Source: Escherichia coli | GTDB lineage: Bacteria > Pseudomonadota > Gammaproteobacteria > Enterobacterales > Enterobacteriaceae | Reading direction: 5' to 3' (one strand) | Assembly: GCF_013122565.1 (NCBI RefSeq) | Contig: NZ_CP053258.1 | DNA: 64,000 nucleotides | Part shown: piece by piece, positions 1-37,467 of the stretch | How the letters are laid out: each line of letters begins with the position of its first letter | Position numbering within the stretch: position 1 is the stretch's first letter | Program-made: the position numbers and the translations under genes | Notes under the pieces: model-generated | Database searches by the model: none | What the model saw: only the letters and a program-made list of their open reading frames with translations | What the model was told of the DNA's origin: nothing

Positions 1-3766
<3,766 letters not shown>

Positions 3767-4079
3767 GCTTACCTTCCCTGAACGAGCTAACATAAATGCG
3801 CCCTTTCTAGCACAGCGAAAAAATGTAAATCCTGATAGCAATATGATTGAAAATTAATAACTTTTCGTTAGGCAGTTTTGGGTGTGAGTTGCAAGAGGGG
3901 AGACTACTGAATTACTCAAGTTTTATAATCGAGGGGAAAATGGTGATGGCGTCCATAGCAAAACGCCCTCAACCATTAAGGTCGAAGGCGCTTAAGATGT
4001 CAAAAACCCGCTATCCGTTAAAAAGCAATGCTCAACTAAGGTCAGTGACATTGCGCTAAAAAAGCGAATTTTTAGAATT

Positions 4080-4155
4080 TGGCTCCTCTGACTGGACTCG
4101 AACCAGTGACATACGGATTAACAGTCCGCCGTTCTACCGACTGAACTACAGAGGA
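4080..4155 (-). tRNA. asnT: tRNA-Asn (GUU)
   Basis: Reverse complement of 4080..4155 is a 76-nt tRNA-Asn sequence ending in CCA, matching the recalled E. coli tRNA-Asn. Confidence 0.93.
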
Positions 4156-4255
4156 ATCGTGTGAACGGGGCGCATATTACTTAGCGGTACCTTGTCTGTC
4201 AACACTAAATTTCATAAGTCATTTCAATTGGTTAATTAATCTGCAAAGTTGTTAA

Positions 4256-5053
4256 TTAATGAACATTCGTCGCCGAAAACGAGTCTGTATCATTAGCGTG
4301 ATGCAGTCTCTGCAAAGGATCTTGTTGATAAAATTGGCAGAAACGTTGCCACAATGAAGGGAAACGAGGAGCAAAAAGTTCTGGGGCGCTAAAGAAATAT
4401 TCAGAAAGTACGGCAAAACATTCAGCAGGATCACTGGCAGCATAAGCATCAATGCTCGCCGCATTCTCGCCAACCAATTCGATTTCTTCCTGAATGTTGT
4501 TCATTGCAGCATGAAGATCGTGTTCCCAGCCAGCAACCTCACGCAACGGAATAAAGGGAACTCCGCTGGCGCGATCGCCGTTACGGGTGTCCAGCTTATG
4601 AGCGACTTCATGAATAATCAGGTTAAAACCAGAAGCATCAAAAGAATCTTGTATATCCAACCAGTTCAAAACGATAGGCCCTTGCTGCCAGCTCTGACCT
4701 GACTGAACAATACGTTGGTTATGCACCAGACCGATATCGTCTTCCCATTCATCATCGACCACAAATGGCGCAGGATAAATTAAGACTTCATGAAAACCAT
4801 CCAGCCATTCCAGTCCTAACTCCAGAACGGGTAGGGAAAATAGAAGTGCTATCCGGCAGCTTCTTAATGAATCCAGTTCAAAGCCCTGTAAAGGAACAAG
4901 CCGCTTTTGCTGTAAAAAACGTTCGGCAAGAGTGACTAATTTGCTTTGTTCCTGTTCCGTCAGACACGTTAAAAGGGGGATCGATAGTGCTTCCTGCCAG
5001 GGAAGGGCAGTTTGATGTGCTGATTCTTGTACTTTCCAGGGCCACTTAATCAT
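4256..5053 (-). CDS. mtfA: Mlc titration factor A (265 aa)
   Basis: ORF 4256..5092 (-) contains [14 protein letters not shown]...; start set at internal ATG 5053 to give the recalled 265-aa protein. Confidence 0.88.
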
Positions 5054-5146
5054 CGTTTTGCTCGCAAACTCGTCACTTGAACAAAATTGCACGGACAGGG
5101 ACTGTTAAAATGCCAAATTTCCTGGCATCATGGCAACCATCTGAAC

Positions 5147-5236
5147 GGAGAGATGCCGGAGCGGCTGAACGGACCGGTCTCGAAAACCGGAGTAGGGGCA
5201 ACTCTACCGGGGGTTCAAATCCCCCTCTCTCCGCCA
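5147..5236 (+). tRNA. serU: tRNA-Ser (CGA)
   Basis: 90-nt sequence GGAGAGATGCCGGAGCGGCTGAACGGACCGGTCTCGAAAACCGG...TCTCCGCCA read directly; long variable arm, CCA end. Confidence 0.93.
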
Positions 5237-5805
5237 CTTTATCAATGACTTATCTCCCGACTTCCCGCCTTGCTTTTCCTAAACAGAACAATCGTAGAAT
5301 ATTCTTGAAGGGTTAGATCGTCACTGTTTTCTGTTCGATACTGTGACATTCAGCACTTGATTCGCTATGGATCTGACAGGAAGGTTTCGAGCGAAAATGT
5401 GCAGTTATTCAGTCGTTTTCTTATCGCTCACCATTCTTCTTTTAGACATTCATCCTATGAAACTGCCGCAAAGTTGGTGGTGGGAACTGAAGTTGCGTAG
5501 AGAAGGGGTCAATAATTGAGCCAAAAAAGGAACGCGGCCGTCAGATTAAAGCCGCGGGACAAAGTCCATAATTTCCAAGAGTTGTTGAATTTCCCAGCTT
5601 TTTTGAAAGCCTTTGTATCATACTAACAAGTAAAAAAGGTTTAAATACCAAAATTAACCTGTATTTTTGATAAGTCTTACCATTGTACGATTTACACAGT
5701 TTCTGCTCCTCCTTGTTGATAGTGGAAAGAGTGCATTATGCACTTGCGTAAACATTTATGATGCGTTGATGTCCAGGGTTCACATTTCCTTGTCAGGGGA
5801 TCGAC

Positions 5806-6336
5806 TTATTTGCGGCGAGGCATCATTCGTAACAGAGTATTATCTTTCTGAATGTAGTGATGAAAGAGTGCTGCGCCAGCGTGAGCTGCGATTAAAAAGT
5901 AACCTATATTTGCCCAGGTTTCGTGAATATTTTTTATCAGTGCTTTAATTTCGCTGTTTGGGGTAACAAAGGGAGACACATTGAAACCAAGGAAACTCCA
6001 CGATTTTCCACTGTAAGCCATTAAAGCAATCCCCAGCAGAGGAAGCGCAAGGAAGGTTATATAAAGCATGATGTGCATTAGCGAAGCCGCTTTCATTTGC
6101 CAGGCAGGTGGCGGTGGCACAATAGAAGGATCACTATAACGGTGTTTTATAATCAGGCGTGAAAACATTAACACCCAAACGAATATACCCGCATTGTAAT
6201 GTGTTTCTCGCATCAGCAGATAAGTATTACTACCTTTAGGAAACCAGCCACGGAGTTCCATCGCGGCATAGGTTATTGCAACGAAAAGCAGCGTTATCCA
6301 ATGTAAATAAATTTGAGTTTTTGAGAATCGGTTCAT
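5806..6336 (-). CDS. yodB: Cytochrome b561 family membrane protein YodB (176 aa)
   Basis: ORF 5806..6366 (-) contains MNRFSKTQIYLHWITLLFV...; start set at ATG 6336. Confidence 0.85.
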   Translation of the reverse strand: MNRFSKTQIYLHWITLLFVAITYAAMELRGWFPKGSNTYLLMRETHYNAGIFVWVLMFSRLIIKHRYSDPSIVPPPPAWQMKAASLMHIMLYITFLALPLLGIALMAYSGKSWSFLGFNVSPFVTPNSEIKALIKNIHETWANIGYFLIAAHAGAALFHHYIQKDNTLLRMMPRRK

Positions 6337-6678
6337 TTTTGTAGCTCCTGTAATTTTCACAGTCAAGCTATCCCACGAACCTTAAAAATTCCTTATACAG
6401 ATGTGGTTTTAAGAATTTGTTATTTAAAAAATTGATAGTGCACATTGTAACCAGCCAATATAAGCAATGGCGAGAGCACAGGTATCTAACTCTGTTGGCC
6501 GTATTGTGTATGGAATCCGTTATTGGTTAACTCAATGCGGGTTAGCTTATTAATATACAGACACGTCATAGTGATGAGCGTGTCTGTAGCTAGCTTGCGT
6601 TCAGTGGCGTTTATGGATGCACCAGTGGCAGTTATGATGACTTACTAAAGCGGCATCGAGACGTTATCATGAGAATAC

Positions 6679-7329
6679 TCAATGAGACATCATTTCCTCG
6701 ACCACTTCTTCGCTACTCAACTGATATGGATAATACGTTGGCCAGTTTTCCATTTCATTCAATAAAGATTGCTGTGAATCATTACCCATAAAAATGTGAA
6801 AATGAGATGATTTTCGTGGTGCAATTATATGATCGCTAAATTGTATATATTTAGGGGCTTTGCTTTTAGGATCTTTACATTCGAATAAGTAACGAACGCC
6901 TTTCTTGCCTGATTTATAGGTGAGTATTTTGTATCCATCGTAATCATATTTACAGGATGTTGTTTCATTATTTCTATGGAATTCAACAATGCCGTCCTCA
7001 ATGCCAATCATCTCGATATCTGTCGCATAACCTTTGTGATAATAATCTTTAATTTCAGCAAATATTTTAGTTTTATCTGCATCCGCTTTTTTCTGAAAGA
7101 CGGGGTCAAGTTTGCCACTTTGCAGTAAAGGATAAACGGATTGCCAGACTCCATCCCAGTCACTTAGCGTTCGGTTTTTTACATTGGCATCATCAAAAAC
7201 ACCATTAGCAGCTTTTTGTTCGATCTCTGTTAAAGGTTTACCGTGTGAGTGATGACCATGCGAAAAGGCAGGAGCGCTAACAATAAAGACACCTAAAGCA
7301 ATAGCCAGTTTATGAAGACGAATCGCCAA
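6679..7329 (-). CDS. zinT: Periplasmic zinc/cadmium-binding protein ZinT
   Basis: 216-aa ORF with HGHHSHGK motif; first codon is TTG, preceded by GGAGGA at about 9 nt. Confidence 0.88.
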
Positions 7330-7362
7330 AACAGTTTCCTCCAGAGTTAATGTATATGATGT

Positions 7363-7385
7363 GTAATGTTATATTGTAACATATA
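7363..7385. promoter_or_regulatory. Zur-box-like palindrome upstream of zinT
   Basis: ATGTTATATTGTAACAT palindrome (7366..7382) about 40 bp upstream of the zinT start; resembles the recalled Zur box consensus. Confidence 0.5.
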
Positions 7386-7522
7386 ACAAAATGCAACAAC
7401 TCTTAGGAGACAAGAGAATAGTTCTCTCAGGTGTGCTTATCTATCTTATTGAAATAAAATAAATTATGTTGGTAATTTGAGGTTGATGACAAACGAAACA
7501 TAACCTGATGCGATCTGTGTAT

Positions 7523-7552
7523 GCCGGATAGGGCGCTCGCGCCGCATCCGGC
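7523..7552. repeat. REP (repetitive extragenic palindrome) element
   Basis: GCCGGATAGGGCGCTCGCGCCGCATCCGGC-type palindrome between zinT and msrQ; approximate coordinates. Confidence 0.5.
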
Positions 7553-7585
7553 AGGGATAACGCGTACTTTGTCGGCAATATGAAA

Positions 7586-8221
7586 TTATACAGATAATTT
7601 GTTGTGAACCTGCTTGCGTAACCGGTTAAAAAGGGAACGCAACTTCTTATACCGTAAGGCTAAAAGCAGTACAGCCAGCCCAGCGTAGATGAGCGGCTGC
7701 GGTGAAATAATCTTCACTGACCACAGATAATGTATTGGGGCCAGGATCGCGACAAGATAGACGAAATTATGCAACTGTTGCCAGTGCTTGCCGAGTTTTC
7801 GCTGCATCGCCTGGGTTGAAGTAAACGCTAAAGCAAGCAAAATAACCCAGCTGATAATTCCTAACGTTAAATAAGGCCGGGTAATTAACTCCTTGCCTAA
7901 TAACGCCAGATTATTCACGCCCAGCTCCAGCAATGCGTAACTGGTTAAATGCAGTGTCGCCCAGGCAAAGCACCATAAGCCTAACAGGCGGCGAGTGCGT
8001 ATCAATAACGGCTGTTTTGCGTAGCGTGCCAGAGGTGTGATTAACAAGGTCGCCAGCAAAAATTTCAGTGCAGTGCGACCGGTAAAATGCTGAATATCTT
8101 TCACCGGATCGGCACCCAGTCCACCGTGATTGATCGCCCAGACCAGCCAGAGAAACGGCAACAATCCGGCAAGATGCAGGCAAACTTTCAGCCATGTCAC
8201 CTGTTTTGCTGTCAGACGCAT
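7586..8221 (-). CDS. msrQ: Methionine sulfoxide reductase heme-binding membrane subunit MsrQ
   Basis: 211-aa [26 protein letters not shown]...; ATG at 8221; directly downstream of msrP. Confidence 0.9.
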
Positions 8222-9232
<1,011 letters not shown>

Positions 9233-9334
9233 TCACACTTTTTTGTCGTTAGCCAGCAAGAGCCGTTTACTGTTAATCTGTCAGGGAGTGTCCTCCCTAA
9301 CAGTAGCAGAGATCTGCTTTTACATATTTATGCA

Positions 9335-9748
9335 TTAACTGCCACGATAGGTTGAATACCCATATTGGCTAAGTAATAAAGGCACATGATAATGCTCGTT
9401 CACTTTATTAATATGAAATTCAACGGGGATCTCAGGGAAGAAACTTTCAAGATTTTGTTTCTTGAAATAGTCCCCGGTTTTAAATACGACACGGTAATCG
9501 CCAGTAGTCGCAGTTTGCTCGGGCCACAGTGCCTTAATTCGTCCATCCTTATCTGTTTTGGCGGTATTAAGTTGTAACCAGCCGTTATCCGCCTTCTTTT
9601 CAAGAGTGACTGTCACGTCAGCAGCGGGTTTTCCTGTTTGCTGGTTCAAAATGTGCACGCTAAGAATGTTTTGTTGTGCAGCATAGACCAAAGAAGGTAA
9701 TGAAAATGCAGCCGTTACTACGGAGAGTACTAAATAACGCTTTAACAT
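9335..9748 (-). CDS. hiuH: 5-hydroxyisourate hydrolase (transthyretin-like)
   Basis: 137-aa ORF ending YRGS, with signal peptide; divergent from hprR. Confidence 0.88.
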
Positions 9749-35537: not shown

Positions 35538-35751
35538 CGCGCACCTCGTGGCTGATTATGGACGGCGTTATTGGCAAAGTGGAACAAGACTCACTCCCGG
35601 GTCAGCAAACTCGAAAAATTGACGCTCCCATTATTTGTGCTTTCGTTTTTTTCTATCCGCCAATAAACCCGTTTTTTTGTTGCTATTTAGCGCCTTTGTC
35701 TTATTGACTTACTGGTAGGCTTTGCTACCAGAAATTATCCGGGAGATGAAA
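35538..35751. promoter_or_regulatory. Divergent fliF / fliE promoter region (class 2, FlhDC-dependent by homology)
   Basis: 214-bp intergenic region between divergently transcribed fliF and fliE; promoter assignment from established flagellar regulon knowledge. Confidence 0.4.
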
Positions 35752-36066
35752 ATGTCAGCGATACAGGGGATTGAAGGGGTTATCAGCCAGTTACAGGCTA
35801 CGGCGATGAGTGCGCGTGCACAGGAGTCCCTGCCACAACCGACCATTAGTTTTGCCGGGCAGCTGCACGCCGCGCTCGATCGCATAAGCGATACACAAAC
35901 AGCCGCCCGCACGCAGGCAGAAAAATTCACTCTCGGTGAACCCGGCGTGGCGTTAAACGATGTGATGACCGATATGCAAAAAGCCTCAGTTTCTATGCAA
36001 ATGGGGATTCAGGTGCGTAATAAGCTGGTGGCGGCGTATCAGGAAGTGATGAGCATGCAGGTATAG
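35752..36066 (+). CDS. fliE: Flagellar hook-basal body protein FliE (104 aa)
   Basis: ORF 35722..36066 contains [24 protein letters not shown]...; start set at ATG 35752. Confidence 0.9.
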
Positions 36067-36456
36067 GTTGTGTAACCTGTTGTTAATTACATCCGATCTC
36101 ACAGCGTGGGGCATGGATGGGGCAAACTCACTCTATTTCTGGTTTAAAATGGATACCTGATCATGAACGTTTTCTGCCATCCACGCTCCGTAACGCGATA
36201 ACCCCCTGAATATCAGAGTGTCTCATTTGACACATCACCACGTCGGATGTTGTTACGACCACAGACGCAACAGTAACCTCTGGATAATTTAATCTTTGTT
36301 GATGTTTTTATTCATATTCCGGGCTAGGGAAATAATCAGGCATAATTGTGTCACTGGAATAGAGGTTTCTTGTGGCGCATGTGGAAGGAGCGTCTACTAT
36401 TGTCTAATAGAGATTTCTTATTACGCAGTTTTGTTCATCACTAATCTCCAGGTTTA

Positions 36457-37125
36457 TCAAACAGGTTGAATTAACTCCGCGCCCTGGTTTTTAACATTAC
36501 CCACCGCGCGCGATACCGGGTGCCAGGTGAACTGGTTTGCTGACACACAACCACTGGTAGCGATTTCTGAGGCTTCTTTACCGCCAATATCTTGCCGCAT
36601 CCATTCCCGCGCAGCTTCTGGCGACAGAACCAGAGGGCGGCGGTCATGAATATCTACCAGACCCTGGTCTGCTGCTGCAGTGACGATCAAAAATCCTTCG
36701 GCTTCGTCACCACGCTCGAACGGTGTGCTACCTATCGCGGCCATAAAAATAGGTTGTCCATCAGCACGATAGATAAAAAAAGGCTGTTTTTTGTCGCCTT
36801 CTTTTTTCCACTCAAACCAGCCATCGGCAAAACAGATTGCCCGACCATGTTGCCAGAGCGGCTTAAACATGCGACTGGTTGCGGCAGTTTCTACGCGGGC
36901 GTTAATCAGCGGCGGTTTATCCCACCATCCGGGAGCATATCCCCAGAAAACCGGATCCAGATGAAGGTGTTCGTCACGTTCACTGAGCAGAAGGACTTTG
37001 GTTCCCGGCGCGACGTTGTATCTGCCAATGGGTTCGGGATCATAGGGAATATCGCGTTCAATATCTTCCGCGAGAAGCGCAAGGTAATCTTCACGCGTTT
37101 GGGATTGGGCAAAGCGTCCACACAT
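36457..37125 (-). CDS. yedK: SOS-response-associated peptidase (SRAP) YedK, abasic-site processing protein (222 aa)
   Basis: ORF 36457..37218 contains MCGRFAQSQTREDYLALL... with the SRAP N-terminal Cys2; start set at ATG 37125. Confidence 0.88.
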   Translation of the reverse strand: MCGRFAQSQTREDYLALLAEDIERDIPYDPEPIGRYNVAPGTKVLLLSERDEHLHLDPVFWGYAPGWWDKPPLINARVETAATSRMFKPLWQHGRAICFADGWFEWKKEGDKKQPFFIYRADGQPIFMAAIGSTPFERGDEAEGFLIVTAAADQGLVDIHDRRPLVLSPEAAREWMRQDIGGKEASEIATSGCVSANQFTWHPVSRAVGNVKNQGAELIQPV

Positions 37126-37233
37126 AGAAACCTCCTGAGAGCACACTGAAAAGAATAGGAGAGGGGGCGGGTAAAATCTATGTGGTACAGAGGCAACGAT
37201 ATTCCCGCTGTGGGCCACAGCGGGAATGAGGGA

Positions 37234-37467
37234 TTACTTCTGAATTAAATAACGAATGGTCGGCCCGTCTTGCTGAATATCCAGCACCGTATAGCCGTGA
37301 TTACGCGCATCCAGTGGAATATTATTGATCGACTGCGGACAGTCGCTCACCACTTCCAGGATTTCCCCTTTTTTTAACTGCGGCATCGCCTCAAGAGTTG
37401 CGACTGCCGGATAAGGGCAGGGTTCACCCACCATATCAAGGCGGTAATCAGGAACGATATTTTTCAT
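37234..37467 (-). CDS. yedF: TusA-like sulfur-carrier protein YedF
   Basis: 77-aa ORF with CPYP motif (MVGEPCPYPAVATLEAM); start overlaps yedE stop. Confidence 0.88.
   Translation of the reverse strand: MKNIVPDYRLDMVGEPCPYPAVATLEAMPQLKKGEILEVVSDCPQSINNIPLDARNHGYTVLDIQQDGPTIRYLIQK

Follow-up and report, generated by a model that had tools for sequence, protein, structure and literature searches.

The flagellar gene fliE and the gene yedK of Escherichia coli converge on a short intergenic spacer, which is the subject of this analysis. It spans positions 36067-36456 of a 64,000-nucleotide stretch of chromosome (contig NZ_CP053258.1), hereafter called the window. The fliE coding sequence occupies 35752-36066 on the plus strand, as defined by its open reading frame (ORF) and translation and by the RefSeq annotation of homologous E. 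coli loci. On the minus strand, at 36457-37125, lies yedK, which encodes an SOS-response-associated peptidase (SRAP) and which we consider likely right-end cargo of a former prophage. An earlier note on this DNA had described the interval as about 390 bp without an ORF of 60 or more amino acids, and both the coordinates and the ORF list bear this out. The largest ORF touching the 390-bp spacer (36296-36469, TTG start) encodes 57 aa and extends into yedK, while the longest stop-free stretch inside the spacer amounts to 54 aa. Such an interval is unremarkable at this length: 42% of 2,000 shuffles of the spacer, which has a G+C content of 42%, likewise lacked a stop-free stretch of at least 60 aa. 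The window is E. coli-like: against complete E. coli genomes, identity reaches 99.2% on the fli side and 98.6% on the yedK-amyA side.

The earlier note further held that whatever the spacer contains could not be decided from sequence. This was too pessimistic, as comparison with phage genomes decides most of it. Positions 36082-36244 on the minus strand hold the relic of a tyrosine integrase gene, namely its last ~55 codons, identified by tblastn and DNA alignment and corresponding to intG of strain K-12. The relationship surfaced only by tblastn against phage genomes; a Pfam search with the 92-aa intG translation gave nothing useful. The K-12 intG translation matches 172 phage records, including that of phage IdasGreatGrand (PP925829), and is 77.8% identical to the C-terminal 54 aa of the IdasGreatGrand integrase (E = 4e-20, tblastn). 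In the window the relic has one frameshift and one in-frame stop, and 11 nt are gone around the original integrase stop codon. The same stretch in other E. coli is labeled 'integrase, incomplete' by the NCBI annotation pipeline PGAP.

At the DNA level, the window read from 36229 to 36047 is 85% identical to IdasGreatGrand, and the match runs through the integrase stop into the last 20 nt of fliE. These 20 nt (36047-36066; TGATGAGCATGCAGGTATAG) cover the last six codons and the stop of fliE and are shared with the phage attP; they constitute the attachment core, attB in origin and the core of attL here. Since the phage carries a copy of the fliE 3' end adjoining its integrase gene, which is the signature of such targeting, its attP appears to be directed at the end of fliE. 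The identity block, TGATG...ATGCAGGT.TAG, is found in the attP of both IdasGreatGrand and vB_EclS_CobraSix (NC_071003), in attL and attR of lysogens and in naive sites. The first 15 nt past the fliE stop (36067-36081; GGTTGTGTAACCTGT) align with the IdasGreatGrand attP as well and represent P'-side phage DNA, and naive sites of Salmonella bongori, Enterobacter and a Citrobacter-like genome diverge from the window immediately 3' of the stop codon. We also considered an identity block extending to 36081 but rejected it, as the comparison of naive site, lysogen and phage in Enterobacter leaves only the fliE part as the original attB. Another candidate, the AGC/TCC serine codon difference together with the TAG stop as footprints of phage-supplied fliE 3' ends, was dropped because the naive Citrobacter-like site (L122) also has TCC and TAG. 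Within the relic, at 36106-36126 on the minus strand, lies a candidate arm-type integrase-binding motif (TTTGCCCCATCCATGCCCCAC), a tandem TGCCCCA(Y) with a near copy in the P arm of IdasGreatGrand. The motif agrees exactly with the right end of prophage Gifsy-2 over 21 nt, and repeats resembling it are present in the attP regions of both CobraSix and phage PHB10. Because it recurs in phage arms and is exact at the Gifsy-2 right end, it probably represents an arm-type site.

The site can be observed in both occupied and unoccupied states. It is occupied in E. coli UTAK-1, in an Enterobacter lysogen (L117) and in a prophage from the IMG/VR collection (L188), and unoccupied in another Enterobacter (L110), in S. 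bongori (L107) and in the Citrobacter-like L122. In UTAK-1 an intact prophage (int 98.4%, xis ... tailspike) sits between fliE and the older integrase relic, beyond which follow a leucine-rich repeat (LRR) gene and yedK; the core is common to attL and attR of this prophage and to the phage attP. The unoccupied Enterobacter site reads fliE-74 bp-yedD, and the lysogen has a CobraSix-type integrase gene (97% aa identity) 26 bp past fliE. The CobraSix attP itself holds TGATGGGCATGCAAGTTTAG. The Enterobacter naive site, the lysogen and the phage have no more than these 20 nt in common, and the original attB is therefore the end of fliE itself. In both UTAK-1 and L117 a full-length integrase gene stands at the position of the relic. 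Among 5,426 complete E. coli genomes, at least 80% of an int-attP query is present in only 8, and the relic in 5,159. In the window, the 64 kb contain a single core-like match, at 36047-36066, and no second copy that could represent attR. A single core without attR fits a decayed relic rather than an excisable element. The core may still be able to accept phages in this strain. A further similarity of 22 nt between 36072-36093 and 36273-36294 was considered as an attR remnant and dropped, being poorly conserved in other strains and located in DNA unrelated to the phage arms.

We then compared the locus with K-12, in which, as the earlier note pointed out, additional genes occupy this position. 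The order in MG1655 is yedK-yedL-yedN (pseudogene)-intG (pseudogene, 'cryptic prophage PR-G', b1936)-fliE, and the fliE-yedK spacer of the K-12 strain J53 measures 2,210 bp; the earlier note was thus right about the intervening genes. Of these, yedL and yedN are extra in K-12, and the window indeed lacks them. The same is not true of intG, since window positions 35700-36333 align with K-12 without interruption and the relic is therefore present in both. Overall, blastn aligned the window (35700-37300) to K-12 in three collinear blocks. The first (35700-36333; 96.5% identity) corresponds to K-12 fliE plus 269 bp. The second (36330-36396; 92.5%) is a piece of 67 bp, found in K-12 between yedN and yedL (6482-6548 of locus L001), and the third (36400-37300; 96.2%) comprises yedK and its 3' flank.

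The breakpoints between these blocks define two cassettes that are missing from the window. The first, of 1,212 bp, contains a DUF5503/EspR-like LRR gene, which is the pseudogene yedN in K-12 but elsewhere encodes an intact 379-aa LRR protein named in RefSeq as the type III secretion system effector EspR3 or EspR4. The second, of 605 bp, contains yedL, a GNAT acetyltransferase gene. Around their sites the spacer can be divided into three non-coding pieces. Segment A (36245-36329) is AT-rich and elsewhere runs into the 5' flank of the EspR-like/yedN gene. Of the 84 nt queried, the first 79 (36246-36324) match K-12 with 100% identity, and the match ends ~5 nt before the right edge of the segment, near junction 1. 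This junction (36317-36333), the site of the 1,212-bp cassette, was located by blastn breakpoints and is also found in short alleles and in the allele with yedL only; in K-12 the DUF5503 gene starts 80 bp past it. Segment B (36330-36396) is the 67-bp inter-cassette piece defined by the blastn match to K-12. Junction 2 (36396-36400), the site of the yedL cassette, again follows from blastn breakpoints and has the same edges in the yedL-only strain MLI114. Segment C (36400-36456), the 3' flank of yedK, is continuous with yedK in all K-12-type and short alleles. The yedL site is flanked by two 22-nt imperfect direct repeats on the plus strand with 82% identity to each other, D2a (36358-36379; AATAGAGGTTTCTTGTGGCGCA) and D2b (36406-36427; AATAGAGATTTCTTATTACGCA).

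These comparisons bear directly on the proposal of the earlier note that the window displays the empty or ancestral state of a variable locus. The locus is variable, and the window does have its shortest form, without the two cassettes. It is not empty, as it contains attL and an integrase fragment, and an ancestral form is not supported, as naive sites in outgroups look different. The idea of a fliE-yedK junction that was never occupied, with yedL, yedN and intG all acquired later in K-12, draws on the much shorter spacer of the window (390 vs 2,210 bp). However, the intG relic and P'-side phage DNA are in the window, and naive outgroup sites have neither the relic nor yedK; the flanks are thus not joined without foreign DNA. 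The alignment of window 36047-36229 to the phage int-attP region refutes this idea, to which we assign a vanishingly small probability.

How common is the short form? We searched complete E. coli genomes with a 151-nt query spanning both junctions and required a contiguous match. It turned out that the short allele is present in 1,014 of 5,426 genomes (19%). Neither cassette is found in the window, in DETEC-P61 or in RM9088; MLI114 has yedL only; strain 48, UTAK-1 and others have the LRR gene only; and K-12 and O145 strains have both. The two cassettes thus vary independently, with all four combinations present in E. coli. In the alleles with the LRR gene only (L100, L088), a single hybrid copy replaces the two D2 repeats, so these alleles arose by recombination between the repeats; the hybrid copy shows that the 48-bp or 653-bp interval was removed by repeat-mediated deletion. 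A tandem allele of the O157 type (L093, strain 139, 4063-8880) has the structure [int'-espR4-yedL'][int''-espR3-yedL]. At its junction, at ~5990-6000, the first yedL ends in ...CCCATACTGACC and is joined to TGTTGACCTGGCTTGTTTAATGAC, the phage P' DNA right of the fliE stop, with an overlap of only 3 nt (ACC). The structure of this junction indicates that the integrase relic, the effector gene and yedL were duplicated as one block. Yet another allele has a DLP12-like emrE-ybcL-ybcM block and IS200/IS605 insertion sequences (ISs) abutting yedK, and it is devoid of segments A-C. The emrE block occurs in many E. coli including B2 strains (L094, EcPF16, 3381-8012; L095, DA33133, 3490-8022), where it is 89-92% identical to DLP12 of K-12 and lacks ybcK. 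In B2 strains this allele also contains IS2, and yedK is truncated by an IS; an IS609 fragment in yedK has been noted before (PMC6963479).

In which direction the cassettes changed cannot be read from the window, given the recombinant mosaic of its flanks and the existence of all four combinations. The yedK gene of the window is 100% identical at the nucleotide level to that of a strain with both cassettes, and fliE (35752-36046, the 20-nt core excluded) is 100% identical to that of a strain with the LRR gene only. Segment B shows 98.5% identity to the alleles that lack DUF5503 and 88-94% to those that have it. With yedK, fliE and segments A and B matching different alleles, recombination must have shuffled the pieces. 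Against this background, the short A-B-C order may be the older one within E. coli, the EspR-like gene and yedL having been inserted later, for example in the K-12 lineage. Both indels are clean: their edges lie beyond the genes by a few to ~80 bp, and the window retains no coding remnants. The independent variation of the cassettes in four combinations also fits insertion. Moreover, the short allele is frequent (19%), and segment B differs by 6-12% between the alleles that have DUF5503 and those that lack it, which points to a polymorphism of some age and not to a recent deletion. On the other hand, no insertion mechanism is evident, as the cassette edges show no target-site duplication, inverted repeats or mobility gene. 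Segment A, kept in the window, is elsewhere the upstream flank of the effector gene, the int'-A-espR-B-yedL unit behaves as one duplicated block in O157-type strains, and the yedK sequence of the window occurs with both cassettes too. By analogy, prophage right ends carry an effector gene next to an SRAP gene, as Gifsy-2 does with sseI. We therefore regard an older short order as possible but the weaker alternative. It is more likely that the short form arose by loss or replacement of cassettes than that it never had them. Specifically, we prefer, with middling confidence, the reading in which the two cassettes were lost; that they were never gained seems rather doubtful to us. A further alternative is that the cassettes were exchanged by recombination with a divergent allele.

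The integrase relic itself (36047-36245) is less conserved than its surroundings, being 86-95% identical among E. coli strains as opposed to 96-100% for fliE and yedK (L001-L003, L085, L088, L093-L100). Relic versions with and without the 11 nt around the integrase stop coexist among the strains. The relic might be refreshed by repeated phage integration and recombination.

Could the spacer instead be retained for something it encodes, such as a small RNA, a small protein or terminators for fliE and yedK? The near identity of short alleles over 36290-36430 would then reflect selection. Columns 250-400 of a three-strain alignment are indeed almost invariant as compared with ~10% difference in the integrase relic part. 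In addition, the original fliE terminator would have been lost to the phage insertion (compare S. bongori), so that a replacement signal may be needed. However, every search for such signals was null, including those for small RNAs and small proteins that the earlier note had suggested. An Rfam scan of the spacer at a permissive threshold gave no hit above threshold, the best being a snoRNA model with E = 4.7. A scan for sigma-70-like promoters and intrinsic terminators revealed no pattern, and folding of both spacer strands showed no excess stability over shuffles (z from -0.7 to 0.05). No tRNA was detected, and none of the seven small ORFs of the spacer matched an NCBIfam family. Furthermore, these small ORFs are interrupted by the cassettes in other strains, the emrE-type alleles do without segments A-C, and a short allele with a single origin that then spread by recombination would account equally well for the high identity at the junctions. 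A retained function is thus improbable in our view. Most likely, the spacer hides no gene and has no function of its own beyond the fliE 3' end and the yedK 3' flank.

Taken together, it is highly probable that an old prophage relic, known in K-12 as intG/PR-G, lies in an attachment site made up of the last ~20 nt of fliE, and that the spacer is its collapsed interior. According to this model, phages of the IdasGreatGrand/CobraSix type, carrying the 20-nt copy beside int, would recombine at the fliE end, and integration would place int directly past fliE, reading toward it. What is left in the window is attL (the core at 36047-36066 plus P'-side DNA), the last ~55 integrase codons and the non-coding pieces A, B and C. 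These pieces flank two optional single-gene cassettes elsewhere; the window, which has neither, represents the minimal form of the relic. The E. coli order, fliE-int relic(-)-...-yedK(-)-yedF, would be what remains after the middle of such a prophage has been deleted.

The extent of the visited segment can be judged from outgroups. A GTDB genome scan with YedK gave no Escherichia genome, and Escherichia outgroups were reached through FliE homologs. In L122, which is 82% identical, fliE and yedF are 63 bp apart with a REP-like hairpin between them. In S. bongori (L107), 838 bp between fliE and yedF contain a terminator and one unannotated 117-aa ORF. Neither of these sites nor the naive Enterobacter site has the integrase relic or yedK. 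In contrast to these naive sites, three non-coli Escherichia loci retain the relic to different extents and with different genes behind it. In E. fergusonii (L102, 8316-10260) it reaches window position 36149 and is followed by umuDC homologous to CobraSix cargo; in E. albertii (L103, 8316-10395) it reaches 36160, followed by a PerC-like gene and yedF; and in an Escherichia with ~91% identity (L121, 7316-9860) it reaches 36184, followed by PPC-DUF1398-ZinT and yedF. These differing cut points and cargo suggest either independent decay or independent phage visits at one site. At this locus yedK is absent from all six lineages, i.e. E. albertii, the ~91% Escherichia, E. fergusonii, S. bongori, Enterobacter and L122.

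On the far side, homology to the window resumes at 37198 in E. albertii and at 37203 in the ~91% Escherichia, that is, at the yedF terminator hairpin. In S. bongori and the Citrobacter-like genome it resumes only at the yedF stop codon (37232-37234), and E. fergusonii has no yedF beside the site. The hairpin, at 37203-37226 on the minus strand, is perfect (CCCGCTGTGG-GCC-CACAGCGGG, 10-bp stem), follows closely on the yedF stop, was recognized from a self-complementary blast hit and the outgroup breakpoints, and is likely the yedF terminator. The same breakpoints make the E. coli-specific yedK 5' region (37126-37197, minus strand) the last part of the variable interval; it shares with phage SRAP genes only the ribosome-binding site and start. 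Based on these breakpoints, the entire stretch from the fliE core to the yedF hairpin is a variable, phage-visited segment that in E. coli includes yedK.

This raises the question of where yedK came from. The gene is the standard bacterial model of the HMCES/SRAP proteins, which crosslink to abasic sites. Homologs with 82-85% identity are carried by temperate phages, and temperate phages and prophages have homologs with 82-90% identity as their terminal genes. In phage PHB10 the order is int-attP-SRAP ... umuC-umuD-tail fibre, and at the right end of Gifsy-2 a truncated SRAP gene lies beside sseI. A Salmonella prophage remnant with UmuC and YedK has been described (PMC8049487). Of 80 yedK loci in other Enterobacteriaceae, 37 have phage-type umuDC no more than a few kb away, its aa identity to CobraSix reaching 94%. 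The IMG/VR collection provides 443 viral contigs encoding yedK relatives. Among the best 80 of them, yedK starts at most 3.3 kb from a contig end in 70, lies at the very end in 24 and is convergent with umuC in 57. Throughout this set (L124-L203), yedK homologs are terminal genes of many 40-60-kb Enterobacteriaceae prophages, usually with umuC convergent across a 2-bp gap.

One of these prophages provides a direct connection to the fliE site. The 48-kb prophage L188 (IMGVR_UViG_2872112595_000001, positions 1-2800) reads yedD-core TGATGGGGATGCAGGTTTAA-CobraSix P arm (92%)-yedK-umuC-umuD, so that yedK is here the last gene inside attR of a fliE-integrated prophage. If a cargo gene is taken to be one that lies inside attR and is absent from unoccupied sites, the position fits in L188, PHB10, Gifsy-2 and 57 of the 80 IMG/VR contigs; the window has no attR left. 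By extension, yedK of E. coli is probably the right-end gene of the same relic, which would then span ~36047-37197. We give about even odds to the view that the whole fliE-yedF interval, from the integrase relic through the EspR-like effector gene/yedN and yedL to yedK, derives from a single prophage, now decayed, and that its left end still works as a phage landing site. In that case yedK would be the domesticated terminal cargo of fliE-integrating, umuDC-carrying temperate phages rather than an ancestral housekeeping gene.

Several observations weigh against the relic model and its extension to yedK. The window core and the IdasGreatGrand attP disagree at 4 of 20 positions, which bears on how usable the core would be here. 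The right end of the supposed relic is set by outgroup comparison alone, because neither a second core nor P-arm homology was found near yedK in the window. IdasGreatGrand and CobraSix, the phages with a fliE attP in the phage collection, have no yedK, and PHB10, which does, has an integrase only 44% identical to that of IdasGreatGrand. The yedK-amyA stretch is matched in 5,377 of 5,426 E. coli genomes, making yedK near-universal, and the base composition of the gene is ordinary, as for a long-resident gene. As for the cassettes, the EspR-like and yedL genes have no DNA homolog in the phage collection and no close relative in IMG/VR, only the integrase relic being matched. Their edges just outside the genes, without coding remnants, fit later insertion too. 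A phage origin of these two cassettes can be suggested by analogy only.

The near-universal presence and normal composition of yedK, the lack of attR beside it and the wide distribution of SRAP genes in bacteria are also what one would expect if yedK were an old chromosomal gene of Escherichia and Salmonella next to the attachment site, lost there in other species and copied secondarily by phages. This alternative would need independent losses in E. albertii, E. fergusonii, the ~91% Escherichia, S. bongori, Enterobacter and L122. It also has to face the fact that elsewhere yedK lies beside phage-type umuDC, at prophage ends and, in one case, inside attR of a prophage at the fliE site. We consider it a tentative alternative, less probable than phage cargo.

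A few further observations concern yedK outside this locus. The Enterobacter vonholyi locus L025 (yedE-yedF...yedK...umuCD) was examined for attR, and nothing clear was found. In the IMG/VR contig L198, a distant LRR protein (8964-9644; 25% identical to the DUF5503/EspR-like protein) is encoded 1.3 kb from yedK, on a contig that also has a umuC fragment; this hints weakly at joint travel of LRR effectors with yedK. Enterobacteriaceae-type yedK genes (71-96% aa identity) also turned up on contigs of assemblies labeled as a Lachnospiraceae metagenome-assembled genome, Chryseobacterium sp., Streptococcus infantis and Streptomyces morookaense (L005, L008, L056, L075), which probably reflects contamination of public assemblies.

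What do these results change? As far as the short spacer is concerned, little: the locus was known to be variable, the presence/absence polymorphism is a common one, and the K-12 annotation already includes both the locus and the intG relic. A search of the literature for fliE as an integration site and for intG yielded no relevant paper. The additions, not found in the literature searched, are modest: the attachment core has been identified, living phages can be named that use it, and yedK likely stems from phages. With the first of these, a group of sequenced temperate phages gains a concrete attachment site, namely the final 20 nt of fliE. The variability of the junction across Escherichia would be accounted for by repeated phage visits that left different cargo. 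If yedK is indeed umuDC-linked phage cargo, this affects the interpretation of its role in DNA-damage tolerance, and it would explain why the gene is truncated or displaced in some lineages.

The closest known counterpart of the window is intG/PR-G of K-12 (b1936), found at the same locus in homologous DNA with the relic included (96.5% identity over 35700-36333). Unlike K-12, the window lacks the 1,212-bp and 605-bp cassettes, and its relic has an extra frameshift and stop. The PR-G annotation covers the integrase fragment only, leaving the attachment core in fliE unnamed and yedK out. IdasGreatGrand and CobraSix match the window in their integrase C-terminus and attP, which correspond to the relic and the fliE 3' end. 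They differ in being complete living phages and in lacking yedK, the EspR-like gene and yedL. The right-end cargo regions of lambdoid prophages, as in Gifsy-2 and PHB10, resemble the E. coli arrangement in both order and orientation, having an SRAP gene last before the attachment site with effector or SOS genes inward. However, their integrases and attachment sites are different, and similarity to the window is confined to the SRAP coding sequence (75% at the nucleotide level).

More generally, the site belongs with the icd site of e14 and phage 21 in E. coli; such phages insert at the 3' end of a protein-coding gene and bring along a replacement for that end. In the present case the target is fliE, and only a ~160-bp integrase relic is left, with no attR in the window. 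The arrangement is otherwise the same: attP copies the last codons and stop of the target, so that the gene stays intact, and the integrase gene adjoins the core and reads toward it.

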